A DNA stretch of 64,000 bases from Anaerohalosphaeraceae bacterium. Its GTDB lineage: Bacteria > Planctomycetota > Phycisphaerae > Sedimentisphaerales > Anaerohalosphaeraceae. The stretch spans positions 128,001 through 192,000 of the forward strand of contig CAXXSL010000001.1 in NCBI GenBank assembly GCA_963675525.2. The letters are read 5' to 3'. The notes under the pieces are model-generated. The model saw only the letters and a program-made list of their open reading frames with translations, did no database searches and was not told the DNA's origin. Shown here piece by piece: positions 4,501 through 56,308 of this stretch; the first letter of the stretch is position 1; every line of letters starts with the position of its first letter. Both the position numbers and the translations under genes were made by a program.

Positions 4501-5184
4501 TCGGGTTAACCATGAGCCGTTCCAGTATGAGCTTAATTGCTCATTGCTTAGACCGTTTATCCAAGGATACCAATAAGAATTTGAATTGGTCCTGTCAAGA
4601 TTAGTTGAATCTTGAATGTAAGTGTCAACTCCGTATGATTCAGGCAAAAGAGGTTCCAGTTCGCTTATTTTAATTATAAAATTATCTGTTTGCTGGGGCC
4701 ATCTACCTATTTTTGCTAATTCACCATTTTCGAAAAGCACGACTCTCGAAAAACCTGGTTCTCGTAATTTATCAAAATCATTGAATACCTTAATATCTGT
4801 TTTGTAAATTGAAGTTGCTTGTGGATGAGTGACTCCGTTAACCGTAAGACCGGGTTCATCAGGAGCACATTGAGTCCACTGGGTTAAGGAAACTGTTCCA
4901 TCTAAAACTGGCATTTCATTAGGATATGCTTTTATTGTAATCGGGTTGTCTTTGGTTCCATTAACGGTGATGATTACTTCTTCGGGATATGTTCCCCCTC
5001 TGACAAGTAACGTGTCGCCAGGTAAAAGAAATGATTGGCCTTTTTGAATTGTCTTCCATGGGCTAATGATTGAACCGTTACCGGTCATGTCATTACCGGT
5101 TGTCGCAACATAATATGTTGCTGCCTCAAGTGTAAAACCTATGAGACTCAGAAAAGCAATAATCAAAAACCTTTTAATACTCAT
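1579..5184 (-). CDS. Secreted right-handed beta-helix (pectate-lyase-like) protein with a cadherin/Big_9-like domain and two LamG domains; C-terminus probably cut short by frameshifts
   Basis: Signal peptide; YYVATTGND...PWKTIQKG...PGDTLLVRGGTY start; beta-helix repeats; PIAANDS...VLSNDSDSDGD...DSFAYTVSDG; two LamG motifs (WQHVAVTY...FDGEIDSMRIYNRALT; FNGFVDDVQIYNRALS). Confidence 0.8.
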   Translation of the reverse strand: MSIKRFLIIAFLSLIGFTLEAATYYVATTGNDMTGNGSIISPWKTIQKGQSFLLPGDTLLVRGGTYPEEVIITVNGTKDNPITIKAYPNEMPVLDGTVSLTQWTQCAPDEPGLTVNGVTHPQATSIYKTDIKVFNDFDKLREPGFSRVVLFENGELAKIGRWPQQTDNFIIKISELEPLLPESYGVDTYIQDSTNLDRTNSNSYWYPWINGLSNEQLSSYWNGSWLTRRHLSGGNKIGTVSITEFDPDTHRLYVSPVLPNGATGQSDAYSINNHPHLVTQPGEYYHTKVMDSNGNITIYYWPIDINNLLNGNIGYAGTRGEAFFIKWKGGATGGFRENIHIEGFKIRGYRGGIHLNGDVQYAGRESGGYLIKDCVFENSAGANSASSAIYSYGIYDLVIDNCTVRNYDYFGFNLLGANDTTVQNCTISRTVGTCVYASGGDNYQVIGNNISEPASVHGNGIAIYGDAGSNKSVLVANNIVEFANNYALTFHNQQKLVVANNVLIGGSYYVMTHWSTGTDYHVVVNNTIISSASPQGDTALRFLTSGDGYIRNNITYGDAIVVGGNLTQSHNLYLAGTKEVGDIDGTNLSNEDIFVNPVLTTARNWQLKLGSPAIGSGISVISDLASIGVTSLFPSFDFTKDKNGNRWNTTPSIGAYEYNPGSTENRVPIAANDSFSIENNSTANSLTVLSNDSDSDGDNLTIASVTVPSHGTATRIDSNTKINYIPTVGYIGMDSFAYTVSDGNGGTSSATVTVTVEQDVQPPQNSSSDVTTGLIGDWRFNENYGEISVDHSGGANTATLVNHPQWNQGTILLDGTNDYITCSNDSTLNLTGDLTLSAWISPQSFGQAGYGRIIDKGTSNTGFTFFVNAANNNLGYTVYGGSLAFSNPNILLLNQWQHVAVTYDENTGQVSFYINGILSGQTAYSENPVDSESSPLVIGIRYYDMQRAFDGEIDSMRIYNRALTSEEISSLTELGRDYGLINSLNITDQSYPNFDKTLVKDRSGYSQDASVIAAPEWGDSYKDGREGWLLFNGTNQAVQISCDSMQAEAGTVALWVQPETTVGHQVLFGHSPAGNNRILLYTADGRLGVEVGDANQLATDTLESGVMQHVALTWNGTEYAVYLEGEQKISGTFSGLTALAATADIANVGADAYRSLDLGFNGFVDDVQIYNRALSAQEITTLSNTLEIKEMQNDLRSSSEI

Positions 5185-24181: not shown

Positions 24182-26188
24182 ATGGCTGACGTTTCCAACA
24201 ACATTGATTATATGAAGGCAGTGATACTCGTCGGGAGCCATGATTTTGGGCGGTGCCCGGTAGCTTCTCGAACGAATCGAGTCCTTTGGCCCGTTTTTGG
24301 AAAGCCGGCATTGCAGGTCCTTCTGGAACAGTTGGCCCGGCAGGGGATCATACGTATTGTCATAAGCTGTGAAAATCATTCTGACATCATTCAGAAATCC
24401 ATCCAATTGCCGAAAGAATTGAATGTCTCATTTCGAGAAGAAACTCTGCCTCGGGGGCCCGCCGGGTGCATTCGAAATGCAGCCGAGCCGGAAGATGAAC
24501 TTCTTTTAGTTCTTTCGGCAAGTATGCTTTATTTGCCCCCGATTGAAGAACTCCTTGATAAGCACCGTCGAACACAGGCGGATATGACGGTTTTTCTGGA
24601 TTCTCAAGAGAATAACAATAAACAATTCCAGCCGGAAGACTCCCAGATTTATCTGTGTGAACGGACTGTTTTATCCTGTATTCCGGAAACCGGTTTTTTT
24701 GATATTAAGGAAGGATTTATTCCTGCCGCCGTAAAAGAGGGATTGCGAATATGCGCTGCTCACTTACGATCCGGATCCGGACATTACCGGAACTGGGCGG
24801 AATACGCAACTCAGCTTAAAAAACAGTGCTTTAGTCAAACACAAAGAGAAATTTTCTTATCCGATTTTTCTTGTTGGTCTGATAGACCGGATGTTCTTAT
24901 CGGCTCGAATGTCCGGATTTCTGAAAAAGCGGAAATTTTCGGTCCTGTTGTCATCGGAGATGATTCAATCATTATGGATGATGTTATGATTTTTGGTCCT
25001 TGCGTTATTGGTCGAGACGCATGCCTCGGACCGGAAAGCATTATCGAAGAAAGTGTTTTGTGGGACCGGGTGACGACAGGGCGGCGATCCAGAATTCGAT
25101 ATTGTTTAGTTGATTATAATATGGCGGTTTCGGATGGTTGTGAAAGATCCAATCAATTAGTTCCTTTTTCCGGATCGAAGATTCAAAAAACATTTAATGC
25201 ATGGAAACGAAAAAAAACACAAAAGACAGTTCAGATTAAGAGTTGCGGTTCCAATGAAGCAGATGCAGAATCCCTGACTTTGGGTATGTTTTTTCAGAGT
25301 AAAACGGAAAAACTTATCGGACTGTTGTTTGCATTATTAATGCTTGGAATATTAATTATCTCATATTGGGAGCCGACGATCAAATCCTTGGCGAAGGTTT
25401 GGCTGGGGAGCGATGAATATTCCAGCGGTCTCTTGGTCCCCATTGTGGCGGTTTATATTCTTTGGTTAAGAAGAAAGACGTTTGGGCATATTATAATTAT
25501 CCCGTCTCTGTGGGCTTTTTTGTTGCTCTTGACAGCTCAAGGAATTCGCTTTTTCGGGCTCTATTATCGGTTCGAATCGGCGGAGCGATTGTCTTTTGTG
25601 CTTTCGATCGGCGCTGTTGTAATCTTGCTTTTGGGCGGACAATTTTTCAAAAAACTATTGCCGATATTTTTGTTCTTATTTCTGATGCTCCCACTGCCAA
25701 ATCGTGTGGAAACCTATATTACGGCACCGTTACAGGTGTGGGCGACGGTTTCTTCTGTTTTTTGCCTGGAAACGCTTGGGTTTTCGGTTATCCGTGAGGG
25801 CAATATTATCAATATTAATGGAACGTTAGTGGCTGTTGCGGAAGCCTGTAATGGATTACGCATGTTAACAGCCTTTGTTGTGGTCACGGCATTGGTAGCG
25901 CTTACAATTAAAAGGAAATGGACAGAGAAGGTCTTGATAGTGATGTCTTGTATTCCTATCGCCTTGATTTGTAATACATTAAGATTGACCGTTACGGCAA
26001 TTGCTTTTACAAAACTGGACACGGAAAGATGGGAAAAGATCTTCCATGATTTCGGGGGTTTTGCCATGATGCCGGTGGCCTTGGCCATTACGATTTTCGA
26101 GCTTTGGGTGTTATCCAATGTGTTGATTAATCCGAAAAATAAACAAGAACAAGTCGTTTATCGTAAAGATAACAATTATTCAAAATAA
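24182..26188 (+). CDS. Exosortase fused to an N-terminal degenerate nucleotidyltransferase-like and beta-helix module
   Basis: C-terminal multi-TM domain with EYSSGLLVP, FLMLPLP, VAEACNGLRML (Cys), CNTLRL (Arg) and FHDFGG (His). The N-terminus has KAVILVG...WPVFGKP, ETLPRGPAGCIR and hexapeptide repeats. Confidence 0.85.
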   Translation: MADVSNNIDYMKAVILVGSHDFGRCPVASRTNRVLWPVFGKPALQVLLEQLARQGIIRIVISCENHSDIIQKSIQLPKELNVSFREETLPRGPAGCIRNAAEPEDELLLVLSASMLYLPPIEELLDKHRRTQADMTVFLDSQENNNKQFQPEDSQIYLCERTVLSCIPETGFFDIKEGFIPAAVKEGLRICAAHLRSGSGHYRNWAEYATQLKKQCFSQTQREIFLSDFSCWSDRPDVLIGSNVRISEKAEIFGPVVIGDDSIIMDDVMIFGPCVIGRDACLGPESIIEESVLWDRVTTGRRSRIRYCLVDYNMAVSDGCERSNQLVPFSGSKIQKTFNAWKRKKTQKTVQIKSCGSNEADAESLTLGMFFQSKTEKLIGLLFALLMLGILIISYWEPTIKSLAKVWLGSDEYSSGLLVPIVAVYILWLRRKTFGHIIIIPSLWAFLLLLTAQGIRFFGLYYRFESAERLSFVLSIGAVVILLLGGQFFKKLLPIFLFLFLMLPLPNRVETYITAPLQVWATVSSVFCLETLGFSVIREGNIININGTLVAVAEACNGLRMLTAFVVVTALVALTIKRKWTEKVLIVMSCIPIALICNTLRLTVTAIAFTKLDTERWEKIFHDFGGFAMMPVALAITIFELWVLSNVLINPKNKQEQVVYRKDNNYSK

Positions 26189-30077: not shown

Positions 30078-30199
30078 ATCAGTGAGGAGATTCAAATTAT
30101 TTGGATATTGCTGTTTTTTCGGAATCTCTCAAAAATTTTCTTGTCAGTGATGTTTTTCAGTGCTAATCTGCTCGCAATCAAGCTCTTTTGAATAAAAAT

Positions 30200-30410
30200 A
30201 GATTGAGTTTCAGGTTCGGACGAAACACGATAGTTTCGGCCGAATAACGAAATGGGAACACGGTGAAAATCCGTGACGGTCGCGCCGCTGTGTGTGTCCA
30301 TTGTGTTGATGTTTTAGCACAAATCTTTCCGGCATTGTCCCACTGTCCGATTTAAGGATGGGAAGGGGCCGGCAAAGTAGGATACGAGTCAGAAAACCTG
30401 CCTGAGGTTC
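30200..30410 (+). ncRNA. Cobalamin (B12) riboswitch
   Basis: TCAGGT (30210) pairs with CCTGA (30401); AATGGGAACACGGTGAAAATCCGTGACGGTCGCGCCGCTGTG core; CCACTG...GGGAAGG; B12-box-like GAGTCAGAAAACCTGCC. Confidence 0.9.
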
Positions 30411-30507
30411 AATATAGTTGTGATGCTCTCGCGATTGGAGTCATAGCGCAAGACCGAACTTCTCTGGTATCAGGGTTTCTTTCCGGGTTTGGTTTTTATG
30501 GATTTTT

Positions 30508-30545
30508 AAGCCGCTGTTTCTCGAATGAGAGCAGCGGCTTTTTTT
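30508..30545 (+). terminator. Intrinsic terminator, probable riboswitch expression platform
   Basis: AAGCCGCTGTTTCTC-GAAT-GAGAGCAGCGGCTT followed by a T run, between the aptamer and the first gene. Confidence 0.75.
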
Positions 30546-30776
30546 ATGTTATTTTTTTTAATCTGCGCAAGACAGATCAGAAAGGAGGCAGTTCAAAGAA
30601 AAACAAGAGATTTTTCCTCATTACGGGTTTGTATGTTATTTCCAATTCCAGTCCGGTGTAGGACTGGAAACCAAACCGGTAGATTGTCGCGGCAGGCAAG
30701 GGTCTGCCGCCAGCCGCGGCGTTCTGCCAAAACGAGAAATTGAATAATTTTGAAGTTGAAGGCTTCGGAGAGCAAG

Positions 30777-31745
30777 ATGATGAAAAATGTTGTTACTGTA
30801 TTAGTCATGATTTTTGTGATAACAAGTGTGGCAAACGCGGCAAATTCGGCAAGCATTGTTTCCGGTTCACTGGTACAGGGGGATGTGGCCGCCGCAATGG
30901 AAAAAGGCAACGCCGCGTACCAGGGCGGTTATGGCGAGGAGACAAGTAATTTGAGCGATTGGAATTTTGATACGGGTGAATTTCCCTGGAGTCCCGGCAC
31001 CTATGGGGCGATCTCCACAACAAATAGCAATTTGAACGCTTATAGCGACGGTTGGGGCAGCTACGGAACAGCCACTGATACTGTCATTGGATTTGGCAAT
31101 GGCGGTTCCGTGACGCTTCAACTTGACAATGTAATATATGGTGTTGACGGCGAAAAAGAGTTCGGTTTGTTCACCGCCCAAATGCTGGACGCCTACGGTT
31201 CGGCTGGTAGTTTCTGGAACGGCAATATGGAAGCAGCTATTCTGGTCAGCCAAAACGGATCTGATTGGGTAACGTTGGACGGGACAAATGTTGCTCAGGA
31301 TTACACAGCCAGCAGCCATTATCTCAATACGCCGACCGTGGGATACAACTACGAGACCCTTGCAACAGCATGGGCTTACGGCACGGGCGCGACAATGGCA
31401 CAACTGAATGCGTTATCCGTTGCGGATTACACAACTCCAATGATTGATGACGATCTTTTTAATGGCAGCGGTGATAATGATGCTCGAGCCGCAATGGCTT
31501 TGGATTCGACGACAGCCGGTTATGATTCCGTTTTCGGCACCTCCGGCGGCGGGAACTGGTTTGATATTTCCTTCTGCGGTCTTGGCAGTGTTGAATATAT
31601 TCAATTAAATGGTATTAATTGTACTCCCGGTAAGGGAATCCGCCTTGATGCTGTTTTTACCACAGATGCTGCAGTGGTTCCTGAACCGGCGACAATGTTC
31701 CTGCTTGGATTGGGAAGTTTACTCGTTAGAACAAGAAGAAAATAA
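30777..31745 (+). CDS. PEP-CTERM surface protein under the B12 riboswitch (candidate corrinoid-binding protein)
   Basis: GGAG then ATG 30777; signal peptide; GFGNGGSVTLQLD, VSQNGSDW, GGGNWFDIS; C-terminal VPEPATMFLLGLGSLLVRTRRK. Confidence 0.85.
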   Translation: MMKNVVTVLVMIFVITSVANAANSASIVSGSLVQGDVAAAMEKGNAAYQGGYGEETSNLSDWNFDTGEFPWSPGTYGAISTTNSNLNAYSDGWGSYGTATDTVIGFGNGGSVTLQLDNVIYGVDGEKEFGLFTAQMLDAYGSAGSFWNGNMEAAILVSQNGSDWVTLDGTNVAQDYTASSHYLNTPTVGYNYETLATAWAYGTGATMAQLNALSVADYTTPMIDDDLFNGSGDNDARAAMALDSTTAGYDSVFGTSGGGNWFDISFCGLGSVEYIQLNGINCTPGKGIRLDAVFTTDAAVVPEPATMFLLGLGSLLVRTRRK

Positions 31746-31761
31746 GGATACAAAAAACAGT

Positions 31762-31798
31762 GAACAGAGGCTGCTTTCTAAGCTGCCTCTGTTCTTTT
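31762..31798 (+). terminator. Intra-operon hairpin / partial terminator
   Basis: GAACAGAGGC...GCCTCTGTTC followed by TTTT, right after the PEP-CTERM gene. Confidence 0.6.
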
Positions 31799-31819
31799 AG
31801 TTTTTGTTAGGTTGCGATA

Positions 31820-33370
31820 ATGTTTATGAAGTCGGCATTCTGGTTGCTGTTTCAGGTTTTAATTCTTGGCTCGTCTCTTTTTGCTGATCCGGGCGATTGG
31901 ACCCACTACGGGCACACGTCCAACCGAATTTCAATCGCGGTTGACGGTCCTGATACAATTGACCCTTCGACATTAGAGTGGCTTGCCTGGGAGGATCTTT
32001 CGTCGCCGGGATATTATCTTGATTTCATCGGTCTCAGCAGTCCGGTTGTTTATGACGGCAAGGTGTATGTATATGCAAAATATTATGATGAAAACGACAT
32101 TTACACAAACAACCAGATCGTCTGTTTCGATAGCGAAACCGGACAAGGCCTCTGGTATACTCCGATTGACAAGCGGATAGAGGTGCTGGGTTCGTTTTCC
32201 AGTCCCTGTGTGGACACGAAAAACGATACGGTGATTATCGGGTCCGGGTATAAAGTTTTTGCGATGGATGCGGATACGGGCGATCTTGTCTGGTCGGCTC
32301 AGTTGCAAAAGACCATCGTAAATGCCTCTGTTTGTTTGGCACTGGATATTGCTCCGGCTCGGGCGTTTATTACCGATTATGACGGAGGCGGCAGTCAAGG
32401 CCGGATTTATTGTATCAATCTTGATCCCAATGAGCCGACGGCCAATCCATACAATCCGGGGGATATTGTTTGGAGCGACGTTCTTGGCGGGACAAGCGGA
32501 AACTCGCCTGCCTATCAAGACGGCGTTGTTTATGTTGCAAGTATTACAGACCCTAATCATTGCTGGTCCTCAGGAAACCCAAATCCGACAGGGACAGTTT
32601 CTGCCTATGACGCGACAGCCGAACCCAATCCAAACAGATTATGGAGAACGACCGATTCACGTTTTGAGGGGTTTTTCGGAGGGGTTTGTGTGACGAAGGA
32701 GGGCTTTCTCTACGCGGCAAATTATGATTTTGGTTTTGAAGAAAACAACTCAGCATTGTGTAAGATAGGTTGCAGCGATGGTCGCGTGATATGGGAAACT
32801 CAGACGGAAAAAACAAAAAGCATGCCGATTGTTGTTGGTGATATGATCTATATTTGCGGCGGACTTGACGGCTATGGTTCAAGACCGAAACTTCAAGCTT
32901 TTCTAGATTTTGGCGATTCCGTACAATTGGTGTGGGAAACACCGTCTTCGTTTGCTGTCGGCGGATGGACGCATCAGCCCGTGTACGCGAATGACAAATT
33001 GTATATAGGCAAAACAGGTTCCGGCGGCTACGATTTTGGGCCCTGTACAGACCTTTATATTTTAGACACAAGATTGACGCCGCTGGATGCCGGATTTATT
33101 GTCGGCCATTATGTCGGTTGCGGCACCAGTCCCGCCGTGACCCATGACAGTCTCTATACAATCGGTTTTGATGGATTGCATAAATTTTTCCAACCTCTTG
33201 CTCTTAGCGATGTCAATCGTAGCGGAGGGGTTGATATTGTTGATTTACAGAGCTTTGCTATGGATTGGTTGTTTGATGGACCGGTTGGAGTCAAAAGGAC
33301 GGATTTTGATCTGGATGGAAATGTGAATCTTTCAGATTATGTTTTTCTGGCAAAGGAGTGGCTTCAATAA
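31820..33370 (+). CDS. Secreted PQQ-like beta-propeller protein with C-terminal dockerin-like repeats
   Basis: Signal peptide, DWTHYG, repeated SSPVVYDGKVY / CFDSETGQGLW / AMDADTGDLVW blades; SDVNRSGGVDIVDL..FAMDWL and TDFDLDGNVNLSDYVFLAKEWL. Confidence 0.8.
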   Translation: MFMKSAFWLLFQVLILGSSLFADPGDWTHYGHTSNRISIAVDGPDTIDPSTLEWLAWEDLSSPGYYLDFIGLSSPVVYDGKVYVYAKYYDENDIYTNNQIVCFDSETGQGLWYTPIDKRIEVLGSFSSPCVDTKNDTVIIGSGYKVFAMDADTGDLVWSAQLQKTIVNASVCLALDIAPARAFITDYDGGGSQGRIYCINLDPNEPTANPYNPGDIVWSDVLGGTSGNSPAYQDGVVYVASITDPNHCWSSGNPNPTGTVSAYDATAEPNPNRLWRTTDSRFEGFFGGVCVTKEGFLYAANYDFGFEENNSALCKIGCSDGRVIWETQTEKTKSMPIVVGDMIYICGGLDGYGSRPKLQAFLDFGDSVQLVWETPSSFAVGGWTHQPVYANDKLYIGKTGSGGYDFGPCTDLYILDTRLTPLDAGFIVGHYVGCGTSPAVTHDSLYTIGFDGLHKFFQPLALSDVNRSGGVDIVDLQSFAMDWLFDGPVGVKRTDFDLDGNVNLSDYVFLAKEWLQ

Positions 33371-33396
33371 TTTTATCCCGGAGGGATATTCTGAAA

Positions 33397-34248
33397 ATGA
33401 GGAAAAAGATAAAGCATATACGAAGTGGATTTTCGCTGATGGAGCTACTTACAGTAATTTCTGTTATTGCTGTATTGATGGCTGTTTTGACTCCCTGTCT
33501 GGCAAGAGCAAAAAAACAAGCCAGTGCGGTTCTGTGCCTGAGTAACACCCATCAGCTTGGCATTGCGTTTTTGTGTTATGGATTAGACGATGACGATTAT
33601 GCGATGCCAAATTATGATCCGGCGACCAATACCTACTGGTGGGGCCAACTCGATACCTCCGGCATCGATCATACCAAGGGGTATGTCTGGCCCTATCTTC
33701 AAAGCGGTCTTAAGAAAAAAAGCGTTTTTGAATGTCCATCGCAAAAATTCGGTACTTATAGACTTCAAGGAAAGCCGCCGACATCACCGGAAAGCCCGAA
33801 TTGGATTACCAGTACCTATGGTTATAATGGATATTATTTATGTCCCCCCCGGAGTCCCTGGATGAATATTCGTCACCGACCGTGGAAAAAATTAGCTGAT
33901 GTTCCGTGTCCGGATCGGTTGATCGTTTTTGGTGATGCAATGTTAGACTGGGATATTTCTCCTGCTGCTTCTGATTTATCCAATACCGCTATGATCGATC
34001 CGCCATATATATTGAACGCCAGCGGGTCATCCTGGGTTGAGAATACATCTCCAACAACTTCTTTTAGGCACAATGAAAAAGCAAATATTCTTTTTGTTGA
34101 CGGGCATTGTGAAGGAATGGATATTAATGGAGGTACATACACGTCACCGGATGTCTTTATCGGATCCATTAAGGATGAGAATGCGCCTCACTATGTTCCG
34201 GATTGGGATTCCTGGGTAACGGCCGGTAATGGCAGAAGAAGGAAATAA
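33397..34248 (+). CDS. Prepilin-type N-terminal cleavage/methylation protein with H-X9-DG domain (DUF1559-like)
   Basis: GGAGGG then ATG 33397; SG^FSLMELLTVISVIAVLMAVLTPCLARAK...CLSN..QLG; FECPS; YGYN; RHNEKANILFVDGH. Confidence 0.9.
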   Translation: MRKKIKHIRSGFSLMELLTVISVIAVLMAVLTPCLARAKKQASAVLCLSNTHQLGIAFLCYGLDDDDYAMPNYDPATNTYWWGQLDTSGIDHTKGYVWPYLQSGLKKKSVFECPSQKFGTYRLQGKPPTSPESPNWITSTYGYNGYYLCPPRSPWMNIRHRPWKKLADVPCPDRLIVFGDAMLDWDISPAASDLSNTAMIDPPYILNASGSSWVENTSPTTSFRHNEKANILFVDGHCEGMDINGGTYTSPDVFIGSIKDENAPHYVPDWDSWVTAGNGRRRK

Positions 34249-34287
34249 ATATTGAAATTTCCTGCTTCGTCGGTTATATTTTGCCGC

Positions 34288-35052
34288 ATGGAGAATCAAG
34301 GGCTTTGTCACAGTTTGATATCGTATTTATCCTCGCATCTTTCAAAGGCATCCCATTTATTCTGGCCGGGGCGATGTCTTGTCTGTCAAAACAATATCAA
34401 TCCGGACGATGAGGGACTCTGTGTAGATTGCTGGCAAAATTTATCCAAATCGGTCGCGTCCGATTACTGTCGCAGTTGCGGCAGGGAGGTCAGCGCCTTT
34501 GGAATCGTCAACGGCCGGTGCGGATTTTGCCAGGATAAACATTTCCATTACGACGGTATTGTGCGGGCAGGTTTATATGAAACCACGTTTCGCTCGCTCA
34601 TTCTGGCGTTCAAATTCAGCGAAAAAACAGAGCTTTTGGCTCGGCTTGCAGCCATGCTGAAACAGACCGTTACCGCTGGCGGATTTTACGATGAAATTGA
34701 AATGGTCGTTCCGGTACCCCTGCACTGGCGGCGGAAACTTTGGCGGGGCTATAATCAGTCATATTTGCTGGCAAAACAGATCAAACTGAAAGATAAAGCC
34801 GTTTCGACGGATCTTGTCCGTATCCGTAACACGCAGCAGCAATGGGATTTAACGCCGCCCCAACGCCGCCGCAATGTCAAAGGGGCGTTTGCCGTGCGAA
34901 AGGGACATCCCTTTATCGGTAAAACAATTCTTCTGGTTGATGATATTTCCACCAGCGGCGCAACATTGAACGAGTGTGCTAAAATGCTTAAAGCCGCGGG
35001 GGCGAAGAAAGTCTATACCGCTGTTCTGGCGACGGCTTTTCATGATGATTGA
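34288..35052 (+). CDS. comF: ComF-family protein (double zinc ribbon plus PRTase)
   Basis: Four CxxC motifs; VPVPLHWRR..RGYNQS; RRNVKGAF; LLVDDISTSGATL. Confidence 0.85.
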   Translation: MENQGLCHSLISYLSSHLSKASHLFWPGRCLVCQNNINPDDEGLCVDCWQNLSKSVASDYCRSCGREVSAFGIVNGRCGFCQDKHFHYDGIVRAGLYETTFRSLILAFKFSEKTELLARLAAMLKQTVTAGGFYDEIEMVVPVPLHWRRKLWRGYNQSYLLAKQIKLKDKAVSTDLVRIRNTQQQWDLTPPQRRRNVKGAFAVRKGHPFIGKTILLVDDISTSGATLNECAKMLKAAGAKKVYTAVLATAFHDD

Positions 35053-35246
35053 GATTCAAATTTATATCCGATTTCACGGATCGTATGAATAAAACTGCGG
35101 TCTATTGGGTTTGATTGGGTTCGCGTGGCGCTATTGAAAACGGGGGTGTTGCGTCCGTTGGGGGGGTTGGATGCAGTCTATTGCATTTCTGTCGAGGGGG
35201 GTACTTGGGGGGTCAAATTGGGTTCGTTTTTTTGGGGTTGGCGGGG

Positions 35247-39430: not shown

Positions 39431-40387
39431 TTGATTAGATTGGTTCATTATTCATTTCGGTTTGCTGAGCAAGTTTTAAACAGCCGGCTTTCTATTAAAA
39501 GGGAAATCGAAGAAATTCTTCAGAATTCAAGTATTAAACCTAAAGAACTTTCGCGTCCCCGTTTTAACGAAATTCTTGATGAGTTGTTTCAAGCTCATGG
39601 CTGGGAGAGTCAGCCGCAGGTTTTTCCAGAGCCTAAAGATCCTTCTGCCAAGATGGATTTTCTTAAAGATCGAGTGGGTGTTGAAGTGGCTTTTGGTCAC
39701 TCCTCCTTTATGGGGATAGATCTGTTAAAATTTCAAGTATCCTCCTATTCGGCACTTGATCAAATCGATAACAAAAGAAAAATTATTTCGGAGCGTTGCA
39801 AGGAACCTTTTGAAAATCTGGCTTATACGAAGGAAGTTATTGATGGGCTTTACACACTCATTGCCGGGGCAATCGGAGAAAGTGCTGTTGTAAAAGCTCT
39901 CCAACAACTATCAGATGATTTTTACCTATATAATGATTTTTCATTAAATTTTGATCCGCCCATATATAACAAGAATGATGATGACAGAATATTCAGCATT
40001 CAAATAGATCATCTACTTGTTTGCCGATCTGGGGTGTTCCTTCTCGAAACAAAAAATTGGAGCAGGCGATCAATAGAAAACTTTGACCTGAGGTCACCAG
40101 TCAAGCAGATTTTAAGAACTAACTATGCGTTATTTGTATTGCTAAATAGCGATTCAAAATTTAACGGTATCGAGCTTGAACATCATCATTGGGGTTCCAA
40201 GAAAATACCAATACGAAATGTTATTGTTATGACCAATGAAAAACCTAAAGAAGAATTCAAACATGTAAAAGTTTTGTCTCTAAGCGAGTTGAATGGTTAC
40301 ATTCAATATTTTGAGGAATTGTTTAGTGATAAAGAAGTTGAAAGCATCTTCGAATACTTAAAAAATAGAATGAATAAAAATCCATAA
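39431..40387 (+). CDS. Chimeric nuclease-like ORF: BglII/BstYI-like N-part joined to a NERD-domain C-part
   Basis: FQAHGW...MDFLKDRVGVEVAFGH..DLLKF (aa about 50-102), then GAIGESAV..L...QIDHLLVCRSGVFLLETKNWS. Confidence 0.65.
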   Translation: MIRLVHYSFRFAEQVLNSRLSIKREIEEILQNSSIKPKELSRPRFNEILDELFQAHGWESQPQVFPEPKDPSAKMDFLKDRVGVEVAFGHSSFMGIDLLKFQVSSYSALDQIDNKRKIISERCKEPFENLAYTKEVIDGLYTLIAGAIGESAVVKALQQLSDDFYLYNDFSLNFDPPIYNKNDDDRIFSIQIDHLLVCRSGVFLLETKNWSRRSIENFDLRSPVKQILRTNYALFVLLNSDSKFNGIELEHHHWGSKKIPIRNVIVMTNEKPKEEFKHVKVLSLSELNGYIQYFEELFSDKEVESIFEYLKNRMNKNP

Positions 40388-40638: not shown

Positions 40639-41058
40639 CACGGACGATCATGGACAGAATGGACGGGGTGGATGTTTCGATTTTCTATTGATAATTGAAT
40701 AATGGGGGAGTTTTATTCTTCCGCCGCAATACTACGGGTGAAAACCCGTAGATGAAGTTAGCCGCCTCTGGCGGGCGGGCGAAGCCCGAAAAGGCAAATA
40801 CTATGGGTGTTAACCCATAGAAATTTATTCGACCCCCCATTCGGCTACGCTCAGGGCAGGCTTTAGGGTCGGTGGGTGTGGGGTGTTAGTATTGTCATGT
40901 TATATTGCCCTTACAGGGCGTGATGTGGTTATGGGGGCCACGGTCCCAGGGCGTTGCCCTGGGCTAAGTTATTCTGCACCTTCGGTGCGTTTTTTGAAGT
41001 TACCGGTCCCCTCTCCCTTTCGATTTTCTATTGATTATTGAATAATGGGGGAGTTTTC

Positions 41059-48728: not shown

Positions 48729-48803
48729 GGTCCCATCGTCTAGTCGGGCCTAGGACACCGGGTTTTCAACCCGGCAACAGGGGTTCGAATCCCCTTGGGA
48801 CTA
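48729..48803 (+). tRNA. tRNA-Glu(TTC)
   Basis: Acceptor GGTCCCA/TGGGACT, anticodon arm CCGGG-TTTTCAA-CCCGG, T-arm AGGGG-TTCGAAT-CCCCT; CCA not encoded. Confidence 0.95.
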
Positions 48804-50392: not shown

Positions 50393-53300
50393 TTACCATC
50401 CCGGTGTCGGATCGGCCGCTGTCCAGTTAACCGGATCATTGGTATAATTATTATTCGCCTGATCCGGGCGCAGATGGGTCAGGCTTTTGCCATTGCCGTC
50501 AGCCGGCTGGGTCCATTCGCCTTCGTCGTCATAATTGACACGGTCTTCGCGGATATAGTAGCGGCTTTGTTCGAACTCTTGGTCGCCGGGCATGGCTAAC
50601 TGAAGTTTTTCGCCTCCATTATCCAGGCTGCCGCCGGTCCATTCCATGATCACCGTTCCGGCCGGAACTCCCGAATACTTCGCACTAAAAGCCACAAGGT
50701 TCTTTACCAGAAGAATTCGCTGTCCAGCATCTAATTCCATGTCGACCGGAAATTCGAATGCAATGCCATCGCTGAATTTCCAGGGGATCCATTCCTCAAT
50801 ATGTACTGTGGGGCTGGAATAGGTACTGACAAAGCCGGCCGTGCGTACGGGTTGGGAACTGATATTCATCAACTCAAGGTACTCATAATCCTGATCACCT
50901 TGAACCGGTCCGGGATTATACATGATCTCACTGATGATAACAGGACCGACTTTGGGATAAGCATTGGCCGTACCCTTGGTCTGCGTACTCATGGGTACGA
51001 AATTCCAACCGCCGGTGCTTTTCTGGAAACGCCCGAACGATACGTTGGTTTGGGCCGCATCAAATTCTTCTTTTGTAAAGTAACCGGTCAGGTCTTCGCC
51101 TAGAGCAGACTGCAGGTAGAGTGTTTCCCCTCCCTCACTCAAGGCAAACGGAATTCGACAACCGGGATCTGAGTCATTATTGAACTGGCTTTCTTCGATC
51201 ACATAATAGGGGCTTGCCGGAGTCAGAACCACACCGGCAGGAATCTGATACTTCTTGCGGTCTGCATCCAATCCGAAGGTATCAGAGATAAACCACCCGC
51301 CGATGGAAATGTTCTCATTTGTCGTATTATGTAGCTCTATCCAGTCGGGCAGTCCTGCATGAGAATGCGACAGCACTTCATTGATCACAACAGCACCGGG
51401 CAAGGGAAGCTGTTCCAGAGGCGTCTCATTCCGTCCAGGGGTTCCGCCTCGGATCGCGCTGGGACGCCAGAGTTCTTTTTGCCCCCAGGATACATCCTGA
51501 GCTAAAAGAGAAATTTCATCCGGCGTTAATGCCCGGTCATAAATCCGTACATCGTCAATCGAGCCCTGGAAATAACGAGGGAAGTTTGCGGCAAAATAAA
51601 CGCCGATTTGCACATCTTCGGTCAATCCTGTATTGATCGGCTCATCCACAAAAGAACTGATCGTTTCAAGCTGGCCGTCAACATATAATTGAGCTTCCAA
51701 AATATCCGGACTGCCGTCGTTGGCGAGGACAACCGTGACATGGTGCCATGTATTGTCATTGATCAACGTGGAGCCGATGATGTTACCTCCCTGCACCTCG
51801 GCACGAAGCTGACCTCCGTCATGAACACGGATCACCCAGCGTCCACCATTATATTCTTGCCCCCAAGTCAGAATCTCTCCTGAGACCGAAGACGTTTTGA
51901 CCCAGGCGCTGCAGCTTCGGCTGGCACCACCAGAGATGCCTTTATAACCGGGAATTTCAACGTAATCATCTTGGCCATCAAAGTATAATGCCTTATATTC
52001 ACGCCCCAGAACACGTTCCGTATTCTGCATATTATGGATGATGCCGTGATGACTGCCGGGAGTACTATCCAGAACGGTTGTGCCATCATCTTCATTGAAA
52101 CTCCAGCAGGCAGCCAGATTCGTTTGCGGCAATGCTGTTTTTTCATAAAGAGGGTCAACAACCGTTAACGAGAAACCATCCCCGTCAGTGATATCATACC
52201 AGTCATCTTCAAAGTCAAGTGTTTGAATTTTATTGCCTGCCGAATTACGTAGTTTTAATGTTTCTCCGGAATCGTCCAGAGCACCCTCGTATTGGCCTGC
52301 GACAGGCAAGCCGGAACCATATTTACTTTCAAACACAGATGGGTTGCGAACAAGTAAAAGATAATTTGCCGGTTGAAGAACCACATCACCAAAGGTGTAA
52401 TCGATGCCCTCTGTAAAACTCACCCCGTTGAGGTTAATCGGTTCCGCCCCAACATTAGCCAGTTCAATAAACTCATCATTCGGGTCAGCGTTAGGATGGT
52501 ACAGCAGTTCAGAAATACGCAGGTATTCATCGACATGACCGATAATGATATTGGCCTGCCGCAATGCGCTCCAGGTACTTCCGTTCAATGTTCTGGCCTT
52601 CACAGTTATGCTTTTTTGTAATGAAATCGGAGTTGTATACTTCTGTGCTGCCGGTGAAATACCGACTCCCGAGCCACTGTATCCGGCCTGCAGTATGGGG
52701 GATATGATAAAATCCGTACTGGTTGTACCGATATTTAATCCGTGAATCGCCAAAATATTGTCGCCGGGCTGAAGAGCTGTAAGATAATCATTAATCGGAA
52801 TAACCACCAAATCGTAGTTTTCATGGCTGGATGAGGCAGATGAGTTCCATTCGGGTGTACCATTGAAACCCTGGCGGCACACTTCAATTCCATTGATATA
52901 AGCAACAAAGCCATCATCATAACGAATCGACAGGGTTAGATAATTCCAATTTACCATTTCCGCAGGGTCAACGGTAAAGGGTATTCGAATATAGGCGGTC
53001 GTACGATGGCTATACATTTCATCATCGACATCATAACTGATATAAGCTTTATTTCCCACCGCATCTTTTTCGTATCCGACACCGCCGGTTTTCGAGTTAT
53101 CGACGGGCAGACCGTCATTCCATAAGGAATCATTGAAATCCGTCTTCGACCGCCAGTTTGTACCGATATCGGCGGTCGGAATTAAGGCCCGCTTCGGGGC
53201 ATTTTCGGCTACCAGTGTCACCTCTGATACCCGCTCTAAAAGAGACAGGCGTGGATCTGTCCCGTCCAAGGTAAAATAGATATCGCCATTCTGCCCGGAG

Positions 53301-56300
53301 GCATTCTGAAAGGCCAGAAGGCTGTTTTCAAGTTCAGAATCTGTTTTGTCAACCTTCTGACCATTCAGAAAGATATCAGGGCCTTTGAAGGTGAAGAGTC
53401 CCTGGCTGATACATTGATCAAAGAAGATCGATTCACGGCCCGGGATGTAGGTGTAAGGAATATATTGATTGATATTGGGAATAACGCCGTCAACTTCGTC
53501 GGCCAGTTGCCAGAAAAGAGTGTCCATGAATTCTTTTCTCATAACACTGTCAGATTCCAGAAAATGTTTCTGGAGCCGGTCCGAAAATAACATCCGGAAA
53601 TCTTCATTGATTTTCAATGCCCGATAGAGTCTGGATAAGTAGCTGGATTCGCTGTTCAGGGTGCCAAAACGATCCCGATAAAGGTCATTATCCATACAGC
53701 CTTCGGCATCCCAAACAAAAAATCGCCATTTTCGATCCGTTGAACGTTCCGCCGTTGCAGTCCAGTTGTTTTGAGGCCAGTCCCAGTTGCCGCCCCAACA
53801 CTGTACGATAAGATAATCCACAAAGCCTTCAAGATCAAGCTGCTTGACCACCTCATGATAATAAACAGGATCTGCCAGATCATTCGTTTGAGCATAATTA
53901 ATAAACGCATTAAACGCCGTCATGTCACCATCAGTTGCTTCCAGAATGTTTTCCGGCTGGACCCAGCCGACAACATCCCACTCGCTTTTGCTGTCGTAGT
54001 ATTTCTGACAAAACTCTTCATCAATGCGTTCACAAAGATTGTAATATCCTTTATAGCTGCCGTTAACGAATAAATTGACAAATGTTCCTAGGCTTGCCTC
54101 ATGCCCCATATAATAATGCAGGCGACGGATCATTTCATCTCTGACAAAAGGATTCGTCTGATCGTTGTGGCCGGCACGCAGCACAATCGTATCCATTTTG
54201 TCGACATCAGGGAACTGCTCCAGAACAGGATGGCGGAAGAAACTGTCCCCGTAAACGCTTCGAAAATACAATCGAAAACTGTATTTACTCGAACCGGACC
54301 AGATACCGCTGGTGGGCAGTGTATATCGCGGACGCATCCATGCACTGCCATGTACCCGAATGCCGCAATCCTCCTGGAAATCGACGCTTAAGGGAGCATT
54401 GATATATTCCATTGAGACCGGTCGTTCATAATCTTTGCCGTGCCCTAATACGTTGTTGTAATCGGTCGAGCTGACCTTATACCAAACACCGTCCCCACCC
54501 CATGCACCTCCGACGATAGCCATGATTCCGTTTGGATTAAAAAAGGTCTGAGTCGGACTGCCGGAAAGACAAACAGCGGGCAACCCCTTCATTGTATTGT
54601 CTGCATTTAAGAGATAGGTCTTGGTCTTGATCACGCTGGTTTCATAGCCGGGTTTAAATGCGGCAGCTCGAACGCACAGACTTGACGTACCTGATGTCGG
54701 GACCGTTACGCTGATGGGAGAGATATAAGTGTTTCCGTTTGACAGGGTTGGGTCGGTTCCATTCAATGTAAACTGAATTACGGCATCTTCGGTTTCCGAG
54801 GCCAAGGTCAGTGAAAAGGAACTGCTGTAATAGCCTCGTTCATGACTGAAATCAGGTGCATCGACAAAACCCAGAAAAGACTCACGATTAAAATTTCCGG
54901 GAGTCGGTAATGAAAAATAATATTCCCCCGCATCTATCGTTCCGTATGAAATATTTTCTTCCTGTTCAGGAAAGCCGAAGACCCCGGAACTTGGATTCTG
55001 AACAGAATCATACGCGTGTTCTGTTGTCCCGCCGGGCCTCCCCAAAGCAAGGTATTCGCCGGAAGCCGACAATTTAAAGTTTGTATGCAGGTAGCCTTGA
55101 GGATCAACATATGGATAATTATCCGGGAAGTCGTCCTGTTTTTTCCCCGAAGCGAAAACAAGTAGAAAACTGCGCCCTTGAATGATTGTATTTTGGGGAA
55201 ATCTCCATTGAAACGGTTCGCCGGCGTCATCGCTGAGTGACCAATCGGCCAAGTCGACAGGAAAATCCGTTTGGTTATACAATTCAATCCAATCCGAGGA
55301 GTCGCCGTTTCCATCCAGAATCTGCCCCTCTTCCGTGACCGGCGGGTCATCCGAGTCATTCGATGCCAGAAATTCATTGATGATGATCTCGGGTTCTTCT
55401 GAATGCCATTCATAGGACAGAGATGCATAATCTTTGATATTAACGAGATTATCCGCATTCATATCGGGGTTGTGATAAAATGCTGAGCCGGACTGATAAA
55501 GTCGCAATGAATCTTCTGGCGTGAATGCCCGATCGTAAATCCGCACATCATCGATCAGGCCCTGGAAGTAACGGGGACCGCCGGCGGCTAAATACGCTCC
55601 GATTTTGACATCTTCAACCGAACCGCTATTAATCGGCTCATCCACAAAGGAACTGATTGTTTCAAGCTGACCATCAACATATAAATGAGCTTCCGCAATA
55701 TCGGGGTTGCCGTCATCGACGATCACAACGGTGACATGATGCCATTCATTCTCATTGATCAGCGTGGAGCCGATGATGTTACCTCCCTGGACTTCGGCTC
55801 GGAGTTGGCCTCCTTCATTCACACGAATAACCCAGCGCCCGCCATCATATTCCTGGCCCCACGTTAGGATCTCACGGGAAACCGAAGCGGTTTTGATCCA
55901 GGCACTGCAGGTTCGGCTGGCACCACCGGAGATGCCTTTATAACCGGAAATTTCAACGTAATCATCTTGACCGTCAAAAAAAAGAGCACCCTGCCTATAT
56001 CCTTCAGAAGGCATCCATTGGGGGTCGCCGTACAATAAGCCGTCATAACCATTGATATCTTCAACCGCCGTCTCGCCTGTGAATTCGTCGAGTCTCCATC
56101 TGGCTACCAAATCAGGGTCTACAGGAAGTTCTGAAGAAAGCCAATAATCGGCGAAAATAAGCAGATCAGACATGTCAACGATACAGTTGCCTGAAAGGTC
56201 GGGAAGAGGACAATCTGATACCGCAATCATCGATAAACAGGCGATAAAACAGCATATGATGACACTGCCAACACAAGACTTCTTTTTATCAGGCATTTTC

Positions 56301-56308
56301 AATTCCAC
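50393..56308 (-). CDS. Giant secreted protein: dockerin-like repeats, two LamG domains, lamin-tail domains, FN3-associated domain, CotH kinase domain
   Basis: DLSGNCIVDMSDL, LamG (FQGLIDDVRIYDRA twice), IIINEFLASN...DWIELYN, YERPVSMEY..CGIRVHG, LFVNGSYKGYYNLCERID, NWDWPQNNW, WRFFVWDAE, ISELLYHP. Confidence 0.85.
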   Translation of the reverse strand: MELKMPDKKKSCVGSVIICCFIACLSMIAVSDCPLPDLSGNCIVDMSDLLIFADYWLSSELPVDPDLVARWRLDEFTGETAVEDINGYDGLLYGDPQWMPSEGYRQGALFFDGQDDYVEISGYKGISGGASRTCSAWIKTASVSREILTWGQEYDGGRWVIRVNEGGQLRAEVQGGNIIGSTLINENEWHHVTVVIVDDGNPDIAEAHLYVDGQLETISSFVDEPINSGSVEDVKIGAYLAAGGPRYFQGLIDDVRIYDRAFTPEDSLRLYQSGSAFYHNPDMNADNLVNIKDYASLSYEWHSEEPEIIINEFLASNDSDDPPVTEEGQILDGNGDSSDWIELYNQTDFPVDLADWSLSDDAGEPFQWRFPQNTIIQGRSFLLVFASGKKQDDFPDNYPYVDPQGYLHTNFKLSASGEYLALGRPGGTTEHAYDSVQNPSSGVFGFPEQEENISYGTIDAGEYYFSLPTPGNFNRESFLGFVDAPDFSHERGYYSSSFSLTLASETEDAVIQFTLNGTDPTLSNGNTYISPISVTVPTSGTSSLCVRAAAFKPGYETSVIKTKTYLLNADNTMKGLPAVCLSGSPTQTFFNPNGIMAIVGGAWGGDGVWYKVSSTDYNNVLGHGKDYERPVSMEYINAPLSVDFQEDCGIRVHGSAWMRPRYTLPTSGIWSGSSKYSFRLYFRSVYGDSFFRHPVLEQFPDVDKMDTIVLRAGHNDQTNPFVRDEMIRRLHYYMGHEASLGTFVNLFVNGSYKGYYNLCERIDEEFCQKYYDSKSEWDVVGWVQPENILEATDGDMTAFNAFINYAQTNDLADPVYYHEVVKQLDLEGFVDYLIVQCWGGNWDWPQNNWTATAERSTDRKWRFFVWDAEGCMDNDLYRDRFGTLNSESSYLSRLYRALKINEDFRMLFSDRLQKHFLESDSVMRKEFMDTLFWQLADEVDGVIPNINQYIPYTYIPGRESIFFDQCISQGLFTFKGPDIFLNGQKVDKTDSELENSLLAFQNASGQNGDIYFTLDGTDPRLSLLERVSEVTLVAENAPKRALIPTADIGTNWRSKTDFNDSLWNDGLPVDNSKTGGVGYEKDAVGNKAYISYDVDDEMYSHRTTAYIRIPFTVDPAEMVNWNYLTLSIRYDDGFVAYINGIEVCRQGFNGTPEWNSSASSSHENYDLVVIPINDYLTALQPGDNILAIHGLNIGTTSTDFIISPILQAGYSGSGVGISPAAQKYTTPISLQKSITVKARTLNGSTWSALRQANIIIGHVDEYLRISELLYHPNADPNDEFIELANVGAEPINLNGVSFTEGIDYTFGDVVLQPANYLLLVRNPSVFESKYGSGLPVAGQYEGALDDSGETLKLRNSAGNKIQTLDFEDDWYDITDGDGFSLTVVDPLYEKTALPQTNLAACWSFNEDDGTTVLDSTPGSHHGIIHNMQNTERVLGREYKALYFDGQDDYVEIPGYKGISGGASRSCSAWVKTSSVSGEILTWGQEYNGGRWVIRVHDGGQLRAEVQGGNIIGSTLINDNTWHHVTVVLANDGSPDILEAQLYVDGQLETISSFVDEPINTGLTEDVQIGVYFAANFPRYFQGSIDDVRIYDRALTPDEISLLAQDVSWGQKELWRPSAIRGGTPGRNETPLEQLPLPGAVVINEVLSHSHAGLPDWIELHNTTNENISIGGWFISDTFGLDADRKKYQIPAGVVLTPASPYYVIEESQFNNDSDPGCRIPFALSEGGETLYLQSALGEDLTGYFTKEEFDAAQTNVSFGRFQKSTGGWNFVPMSTQTKGTANAYPKVGPVIISEIMYNPGPVQGDQDYEYLELMNISSQPVRTAGFVSTYSSPTVHIEEWIPWKFSDGIAFEFPVDMELDAGQRILLVKNLVAFSAKYSGVPAGTVIMEWTGGSLDNGGEKLQLAMPGDQEFEQSRYYIREDRVNYDDEGEWTQPADGNGKSLTHLRPDQANNNYTNDPVNWTAADPTPGW

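Follow-up and report, generated by a model that had tools for sequence, protein, structure and literature searches.

The stretch of DNA analysed here (the window) comprises 64,000 nucleotides (nt) of an Anaerohalosphaeraceae bacterium (GCA_963675525.2, contig CAXXSL010000001.1, positions 128,001-192,000, forward strand), whose genome, G000, is 99.5% complete with 4.12 Mb on 20 contigs. In the window, a cobalamin riboswitch heads a cassette of three genes encoding a PEP-CTERM protein with a predicted BtuH-like fold (P1), a beta-propeller protein with a dockerin-like tail (P2) and a prepilin of the H-X9-DG type (P3). With high probability, this cassette is a corrinoid-capturing module, presumably repressed by vitamin B12 (B12), which combines surface binders with a dedicated pilin. 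That the pilin replaces the TonB-dependent receptor BtuB in crossing the outer membrane, and thereby itself serves import, is a more tentative proposal, whose chances we put a little short of even. It is suggested by the mutual exclusion of pilin and receptor at the level of the operon, by the linkage of prepilin genes to btuFCD and by loci where the riboswitch heads a lone prepilin gene.

Porins are too narrow for B12, and TonB-dependent BtuB is, to our knowledge, the only route by which it is known to cross the outer membrane of diderm bacteria. A literature search, which lay outside subscription journals and supplements, revealed nothing that links cobalamin riboswitches or B12 uptake to prepilins or DUF1559 proteins.

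Structure of the riboswitch operon

The Rfam covariance model RF00174 identified a cobalamin riboswitch aptamer at 30195..30419 (+) with 82.6 bits (gathering score 31.5; E 7.8e-19). The alignment spans the full model (positions 1-189) and is the single RF00174 match in all of G000. Folding of the RNA from 30380-30560 revealed an intrinsic terminator at 30508..30546 (+), composed of a hairpin with a 14-16 bp stem at about 30508-30541 and a following UUUUUUU; a simple terminator scan did not list this hairpin. It is predicted to be the expression platform of the riboswitch, with a putative role as attenuator. The open reading frames (ORFs) of P1, P2 and P3 follow downstream in the same orientation, separated by intergenic gaps of 74 and 26 nt. 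P1 and P2 start with signal peptides and P3 with a prepilin signal. Among 43 ORFs of the window scanned with Pfam (E<=0.01 / E<=1e-5), none encodes BtuB, BtuFCD, TonB or a cob/cbi protein. An earlier sequence-only reading of this DNA had claimed a B12 riboswitch and a terminator ahead of three close, co-oriented genes for exported proteins, with no BtuB, BtuCDF, TonB or cob/cbi gene in the window, and our analysis confirmed this description throughout.

P1 is predicted to share a B12-binding fold

P1 (30777..31745, +) combines a signal peptide, a predicted BtuH-like domain and a PEP-CTERM anchor. The anchor scored above the cut-offs of PF07589 (26.6 bits vs 20.7) and TIGR02595 (22.4 vs 16), and the C-terminus, VPEPATMFLLGLGSLLVRTRRK, displays the PEP motif, a transmembrane helix and a basic tail. 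The signal peptide is of the Ala-x-Ala type without a lipobox Cys, so that P1 lacks the surface lipoprotein anchor of BtuH. Upstream, at 24182..26188 (+), lies the gene of an exosortase (PF09721, Exosortase_EpsH, 178.5 bits), which also carries nucleotidyl-transferase and LbH domains as fusion partners; it is predicted to sort PEP-CTERM proteins, P1 among them.

The protein is single-copy in G000. Searching 401 genomes of the phylum with P1 returned matches to its PEP-CTERM tail alone. The apparent lack of synteny in this search was misleading, because the riboswitch-centred survey described below showed P1 to be a divergent member of a common family of about 330 amino acids (aa), here termed the B family. 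A hidden Markov model (HMM) of this family, built without P1, matched P1 over residues 4-321 with 72.4 bits (E 2e-24), which makes it a full-length member.

A structural model of P1 was obtained from 25 sequences (predicted local distance difference test (pLDDT) 64.9, predicted template modelling score (pTM) 0.66; residues 25-100 poor) and compared with 48,161 chains of the PDB using VIA-align. The first rank was taken by residues 389-660 of 8blw_B (Z 9.6, root-mean-square deviation (rmsd) 3.4 Å, 153 aligned residues, 18% identity), which is the BtuG1 lipoprotein in complex with BtuB1; the residues matched by P1 are its H domain. The second rank was taken by residues 315-593 of 7biz_B, the B12-binding lipoprotein BtuH2 (Z 8.8, rmsd 3.6 Å, 148 aligned residues, 16% identity). 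These two were the only chains with Z>=8, and carbohydrate-binding jellyrolls came next with values of at most 7.3. According to section 5 of PMC13616437, the matched regions of 7biz_B and 8blw_B are the BtuH B12-binding domain and a fused copy of the same domain. The model thus predicts for P1 the B12-binding fold of BtuH and of the BtuG1 H domain.

The sequence-only reading had suggested comparing the exported proteins with the B12 binders BtuG, BtuH and BtuJ. The comparison came out in favour of the BtuH and BtuG1 H domain for P1; for BtuJ it was negative, with no match of PF14717 (DUF4465/BtuJ) in P1, P2 or P3 at E<=0.01. An HMM of the DUF4465 proteins of relatives matched only signal peptides and tails in G000 (at most 33 bits), where no DUF4465 member was found. 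Homology between the B family and DUF4465, indicated by hhalign with 95% probability, was not accepted, as the 81 columns aligned are C-terminal and the PEP-CTERM tail is among them. A hint that the B family is related to the LIC_13355 lipoprotein family came from an Atlas score of 0.90 and from NCBIfam matches in 6 of 25 members (best E 9.7e-5). Profiles of the B family and of a small PEP-CTERM family, searched against PDB sequences, gave matches at chance level only.

P2 is a propeller protein with a dockerin-like tail

P2 (31820..33370, +) has a signal peptide, a PQQ/BamB-like beta-propeller (PF13360, PQQ_2, 68.4 bits vs 27.6) and a dockerin-like C-terminal tail. The tail, residues 463-512, matched Dockerin_1 (PF00404) with 19.7 bits, which is below the cut-off of 22.9; many homologues carry a precomputed PF00404 annotation. 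No propeller family other than PQQ_2 was found above its cut-off at E<=0.01, and there was no Pfam match to the BtuG family, whose seven-bladed propeller is named PF16819 in PMC13398666. Like P1, P2 is single-copy in G000. It has 252 homologues, of which the named ones belong to Sedimentisphaerales and Phycisphaerae, including Anaerohalosphaera lusitana (52% identity). Homologues are found under riboswitches in seven loci of our survey (L083-85, L092, L099, L122 and L139).

P3 belongs to a riboswitch-linked lineage of prepilins

P3 (33397..34248, +; the ORF can also be read from a GTG at 33358) starts with the class III signal RSG/FSLMELL (Gly-1/Phe+1/Glu+5) and scored above the cut-offs of PF07963 N_methyl (22.2 bits vs 21.2), TIGR02532 (23.3 vs 16.3) and TIGR04294 (19.1 vs 19). 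The last of these matches is shared with the H-X9-DG/DUF1559 prepilins of Planctomycetes-Verrucomicrobia-Chlamydiae (PVC) bacteria, and its nearest neighbours in the Atlas are N_methyl/DUF1559 clusters from Planctomycetota. PF07596 (DUF1559) does not match P3 at E<=0.01 and matches its relatives weakly, with 17-37 bits. An alignment of 43 riboswitch-linked pilins showed invariant Glu16, Pro33, Cys47, Trp82, Cys113-Pro114, Asn144 (within Tyr-x-Tyr-Asn144), Asp180, Arg224-His225 and Asp235. Gly236, the last residue of the H-x9-DG motif, is nearly invariant.

In the model of P3, based on this 43-sequence alignment (pLDDT 86.4, pTM 0.85), residues 14-64 form the alpha-1 helix, and the head, about 220 residues in size, is rich in beta structure. 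The class III signal and the helix of about 50 residues packed on a beta sheet resemble type IV pilins and pseudopilins of the type II secretion system (T2SS). A Foldseek search against the PDB gave nothing at E<=0.001, with only pilin helices appearing, and a search of PDB sequences with the prepilin profile likewise returned N-terminal helices of pilins only. None of the 48,161 chains reached Z>=5 in VIA-align. The only chains to reach the head, all of them weak matches, were PilA4 (6xxd, Z 4.9), the pseudopilin EpsG (4lw9, 4.2), a type IVb pilin (4.0), ComP (5hz7, 3.9) and PilV (5v23, 3.7). P3 is hence a protein of the pilin type, and its enlarged head is about twice the size of those of PilA4, EpsG, ComP and PilV. 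The pilin ComP binds DNA, a substrate that is imported.

An HMM constructed from 56 riboswitch-linked prepilins of other genomes detected 29 full-length P3-type paralogues in G000 (>85 bits), with P3 on top (193 bits vs 132 for the next). A quick IQ-TREE phylogeny was calculated from 51 riboswitch-linked sequences, P3 and 27 other paralogues, all of the latter from G000; 6 sequences lacking the prepilin regular expression were dropped. The riboswitch-linked prepilins fall into two clades, one of 22 rows (SH-aLRT 97) and one of 30 rows that includes P3 (95), neither of which contains any of the 27 other G000 paralogues. Within its clade, P3 lies in an eight-row subclade (97) whose members are mostly accompanied by P2-type propellers. 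On this sequence evidence, the riboswitch-linked pilins are a lineage distinct from the other paralogues of G000, and they differ from other H-X9-DG/DUF1559 prepilins by being linked to riboswitches across two phyla.

About 10 of the 29 G000 paralogues are found in the same layout, in which a small PEP-CTERM protein and one or more dockerin-tailed proteins accompany the prepilin (tails called by regular expression), so that the B12 cassette looks like one instance of a general module. Similar cassettes lie, for example, at C16:980372-984088, C19:156926-160594, C16:295542-299568, C11:533955-539827 and C1:212034-213623. They encode, on one strand, a PEP-CTERM protein of 195-245 aa, dockerin-tailed proteins (one or two, each 460-780 aa long) and a prepilin, and their proteins are unrelated to those of the B12 cassette.

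The recurrent layout looks as if each pilin accompanied its exported neighbours, and it favours the main rival of the import proposal. P3 would then be a cargo-specific pseudopilin that only exports or displays the surface binders through a T2SS, and B12 would cross the outer membrane by an unregulated TonB-dependent receptor. In line with this explanation, the tips of T2SS pseudopili contact their substrates. Considering also the evidence from loci and receptors given below, we regard it as unlikely.

Riboswitch loci in related genomes

We surveyed the class in 61 genomes including G000, of which 59 have RF00174 matches, mostly one each. The 73 matches outside G000 correspond to 71 loci in 58 genomes, with two tandem pairs each sharing a locus. 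On the strand of the riboswitch, ORFs with a minimum length of 90 aa were classified with phmmer and HMMs. From other Planctomycetota 60 loci were sampled (one per genome and about one per family, chosen from a longer list). Verrucomicrobiota contributed 28 loci, representing all 29 matches over cut-off in 61 genomes (13 sub-threshold matches were dropped), and seven further loci came from a Kiritimatiellia metagenome-assembled genome (MAG), a Lentisphaeria MAG and a MAG labelled Akkermansia.

A P3-type prepilin was found behind the riboswitch in 55 of the 71 class loci, corresponding to 52 of the 58 genomes. It was also found in 6/60 loci of other Planctomycetota, in 13/28 loci of Verrucomicrobiota and in 1/7 of the remaining loci. 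The chance of finding a prepilin at a given locus is about 1-2%, judged from 29 paralogues in 4.1 Mb of G000. Synteny of cobalamin riboswitches and prepilins, as predicted by the sequence-only reading, is therefore conserved well outside G000. A further search for related loci with a prepilin alignment recovered only the generic N-terminal pattern and led to generic prepilins of PVC bacteria and Armatimonadota; it was used for taxon labels and entry points only.

Between riboswitch and prepilin, the loci encode exported proteins with PEP-CTERM or dockerin tails. They comprise DUF4465 (BtuJ) proteins, the B family, a family of small PEP-CTERM proteins (A family), P2-type propellers and some unclassified proteins. 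A DUF4465 or B-family protein is present in 46 of the 75 prepilin loci and DUF4465 in 15 of them. The DUF4465 homologues between riboswitch and prepilin carry PEP-CTERM tails (e.g. in L078, L080 and L293-295), and those of L078 and L080 match PF14717 at 175-191 bits. According to PMC13398666, DUF4465 (PF14717) jellyrolls from outside the Bacteroidota have been found experimentally to bind B12, among them 'Pan' of Mucisphaera calidilacus, a member of the Phycisphaerae, and the Coraliomargarita akajimensis protein D5EK51. The text of this paper does not contain the words pilin, prepilin, PEP-CTERM or dockerin, and the neighbourhood families it names are ABC, TonB-barrel, plug and propeller families only. 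G000 differs from these DUF4465 systems in having no DUF4465 member; the BtuH-like P1 stands in that place.

Some loci vary the arrangement of the cassette. In G418:C44 (L099/L135), back-to-back divergent riboswitches split it into a half with propeller and B-family genes and a half with the prepilin, and another divergent riboswitch pair is found in G416:C6 (L113/L132). Tandem riboswitches lie ahead of the cassette in G441:C121 and G407:C51. In L083-L085, which belong to the high-GC genus g8, B-family and propeller proteins carry a C-terminal dockerin of the GC type (NF041540, best E 7.1e-9) in place of the PEP-CTERM and type I dockerin tails.

The 16 class loci without a prepilin are of several kinds. 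Five are ended by a contig edge, four of these after a partial cassette, and one is the propeller half of the divergent pair L099/L135, which has the prepilin on its other half. Three encode nrdAB and metE (L107, L115 and L116) and three cobamide salvage, including L079, which also has a TonB-dependent receptor. One more has a TonB-dependent receptor, and three are others. The nrdAB and metE loci show that riboswitches of the class also control B12-independent isozymes, and PEP-CTERM and dockerin proteins are generic surface proteins. Both would agree with an operon unrelated to uptake, serving a B12-repressed surface or adhesion function (e.g. attachment to B12 producers) or a B12-independent substitute. 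We regard this as highly improbable in view of the predicted BtuH-like fold of P1, of the DUF4465 B12 binders in 15 and btuFCD in four of the 75 prepilin loci, and of the position of the cassette under the sole riboswitch of a likely auxotroph.

In four loci, the prepilin shares an operon with btuFCD (L078, L243, L254 and L310), and L317 has a btuF-like gene. In genome G093, the operon runs on into btuF, btuD and btuC. Seven loci have a prepilin without a surface protein under the riboswitch (L091, L135, L138, L236, L244, L281 and L311), and btuFCD is its sole company in L243, L254 and L310. These loci without an exportable neighbour weaken the explanation by export or display, which the general cassette pattern favours.

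The direct proximity of the prepilin to btuF-btuC-btuD in L078, L243, L254 and L310 would also fit a P3 that is not built into a fibre and acts as an inner-membrane-anchored periplasmic shuttle or binder, handing B12 to BtuF and BtuCD. The Pfam identifier of DUF1559, 'SBP_bac_10', and the head of P3, which is large for a fibre subunit, point in the same direction. However, BtuF is already present in those operons and in G000, so that a second periplasmic binder is not obviously needed, and the class III signal with Glu+5 and the long alpha-1 helix are features of fibre assembly. A periplasmic shuttle, which would moreover leave the exclusivity with an outer-membrane receptor unexplained, is in our estimation quite improbable.

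Prepilins and TonB-dependent receptors exclude each other at riboswitch loci

TonB-dependent receptors were found in 14/60 loci of other Planctomycetota, 8/28 of Verrucomicrobiota and 1/7 of the remaining loci. Altogether, 75 of the 166 loci have a prepilin and 25 a receptor, and none has both, where about 11 co-occurrences would be expected (hypergeometric P 5e-8 for all loci and 2e-3 for those outside the class; owing to the relatedness of the loci, counts and P values overstate their independence). This exclusivity would be unexpected if pilin and receptor were both needed in series, as in the explanation by export or display. The sequence-only reading had expected homologues of the cassette to be anticorrelated with btuB, and to lose its case if they were always accompanied by a co-regulated BtuB. 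The 75 prepilin loci contain no BtuB, and the anticorrelation holds for operons; one genome, G093, has both the cassette and a riboswitch-linked receptor, in separate operons.

The same reading had called the system a candidate for TonB-independent capture. TonB independence was not established, because G000 has 8 genes resembling TonB-dependent receptors, in addition to 2 ExbD homologues; TonB-independent uptake in G000 is possible. None of 6 receptor-like ORFs scanned reached the BtuB cut-offs, and TonB_C (PF03544) had no match in G000. Identity of the G000 receptors to the riboswitch-linked receptors of relatives is 22-36% at most and lies mostly over the plug region, which speaks against the unregulated receptor required by export or display.

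Several points weigh against import by the pilin or against the evidence for it, besides the relatedness of the surveyed loci. The receptor-like ORFs and ExbD homologues of G000 are possible B12 importers without riboswitch control, and G093 carries a riboswitch-linked receptor in a second operon in addition to the cassette; both observations count in favour of export or display. So does the layout shared by about 10 of the 29 paralogues, which fits export or display of the neighbours rather than import of a ligand. The survey was limited to the riboswitch strand and to about 5.5-6 kb of downstream sequence, and its prepilin and receptor HMMs were home-made. The model of P1 is only moderately confident, and the B-family profile found no BtuH entry among PDB sequences at E<=1. 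The head of P3 matched no known ligand-binding fold.

With regard to its B12 economy, G000 has 8 matches to B12-binding domains, 6 of them over cut-off. CbiC is absent, as are blastp homologues (E<=1e-8) of the riboswitch-controlled CobU, CobT, CobS, CbiB and MetE of relatives, and G000 therefore likely depends on an imported complete corrinoid. One ABC transporter of the BtuF/BtuC/BtuD type is encoded at C11:431150-433934, with the sole Peripla_BP_2 match of the genome. Its best NCBIfam matches are BtuF, BtuC and a corrinoid ATPase, all below the equivalog cut-offs. Among the components of pilus and T2SS machinery, G000 has 10 Secretin and 19 T2SSE-type ATPase matches, both unusually many, and one prepilin peptidase (Peptidase_A24).

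Exchange of the cassette in a genome of the same genus

G222, a genome of the same genus (locus L073), shares with the window the segment 29895-30721, from the 3' end of a sugar-transferase gene through riboswitch and leader, at 74% nucleotide identity. On the other side it shares comF (34275-35053; 73% nucleotide and 71% protein identity), which forms the right border of the swapped segment. The stretch between leader and comF does not align at all. Where the window has the 3.55 kb segment encoding P1, P2 and P3, G222 has an unrelated cargo of 2.5 kb, which encodes a small PEP-CTERM protein, a B-family protein with a dockerin tail and a prepilin that belongs to the other clade. P2 and P3 have their closest relatives (39% identity) in distant members of the class. 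The presence of two different sets of binders and pilin at the same riboswitch suggests that they do the same job.

The comF-family gene of the window (34252..35052, +) starts 3 nt past P3 and encodes DZR_2 and Pribosyltran domains; its TIGR00201 score of 107.5 bits is below the cut-off of 233.55. A comF gene lies behind the cassette in only 3/5 loci of the same family (L073, L076 and L077), and for this reason it is probably a mere neighbouring gene. It forms a conserved flank of the cassette, possibly co-transcribed, that probably lies outside the B12 function. The idea that comF ties the cassette functionally to a pilus of the DNA-uptake type was set aside on the same count.

Other features of the window

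Immediately upstream of the riboswitch, an exopolysaccharide/glycan cluster extends over 5914-30077 (+). It contains FdtA-like isomerases, an aminotransferase, a flippase, several GT2 glycosyltransferases, Alg14/Alg13-like halves, a NodZ-like fucosyltransferase and a protein with DUF362 and dockerin domains, and it ends with the exosortase fusion, a Wzz/tyrosine kinase and a priming sugar transferase with an N-terminal LbH domain. The regions 1579-5184 (-) and 50393-56308 (-) each encode a giant surface protein, of 1201 aa and 1971 aa, respectively. These proteins have Laminin_G_3, Big_9/cadherin-like and beta-helix domains, to which the larger one adds a lamin-tail (LTD) domain and a CotH kinase. 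In the ORF at 39431-40387 (+), a restriction endonuclease domain of the BglII type is combined with a nuclease-related NERD domain. The window further contains a match to the Acido-Lenti-1 RNA (RF01687) at 40945-40989 (+; 42.2 bits, gathering score 37) and a tRNA gene at 48729-48803 (+; 62 bits).

A proposed course of import and its implications

Whereas the riboswitch, the domain composition of the proteins, the conserved riboswitch-prepilin linkage and its operon-level exclusivity with TonB-dependent receptors are observed, we infer repression of the operon by B12, binding of B12 by any of P1, P2 and P3 and a role of the pilin in import. When B12 is scarce, the operon would be read through. 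P1 would be sorted by the exosortase encoded 4 kb upstream, and P1 and P2 on the cell surface would capture corrinoids. The prepilin peptidase would cut P3, which would be built into one of the many machines of G000 that resemble a T2SS or type IV pilus. P3 would then bring the corrinoid, or a loaded binder, through a secretin into the periplasm, where an unlinked BtuFCD-like transporter would finish the import. Taken as a whole and including this course of import, this is the best explanation we can offer, and we give it an even chance of being right.

The proposed system has a counterpart in Bacteroides thetaiotaomicron, where, according to PMC13616437, B12 is relayed via BtuJ, BtuH, BtuK and BtuG to BtuB and further to BtuFCD. 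Both are riboswitch-controlled loci of several surface-anchored proteins including a beta-propeller. P1 is predicted to share the fold of BtuH and the BtuG1 H domain, and the cassettes of relatives carry DUF4465 (BtuJ) and sometimes btuFCD. In contrast to the Bacteroides relay, the proteins of the cassette are anchored by PEP-CTERM or dockerin-like tails and not by lipoprotein signals, a gene for an H-X9-DG pilin-like protein is found instead of BtuB, P2 is of the PQQ/BamB type without a Pfam match to the BtuG family, and the hosts are PVC bacteria and not Bacteroidota. The cassette thus extends the B12-scavenging relay of Bacteroides, with its BtuH- and BtuJ-type binders, to environmental PVC bacteria with different surface anchors.

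In PMC10632474, the DUF1559/H-X9-DG family is described as of unknown function, with 68 paralogues in Planctopirus, two of which are essential. The family is among the largest of this kind in Planctomycetota, and the cassette would give it a first testable member linked to a ligand.

Beyond the B12 cassette, H-X9-DG/DUF1559 pilins could be substrate-specific subunits of an import by fibre and secretin, a PVC counterpart of TonB-dependent transporters for molecules above porin size. We think such a general role unlikely on present evidence. If it were true, the approximately ten similar cassettes of G000 would each import a different substrate, comparable to the polysaccharide utilisation loci of Bacteroidota, and the B12 cassette would be the only one whose regulator reveals the ligand. 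In two phyla, riboswitch operons contain a TonB-dependent receptor or, alternatively, a dedicated pilin-like protein together with B12 binders of the surface, and receptor and pilin never occur together. Should the pilin take over the task of the receptor, this would be a new principle of nutrient import.

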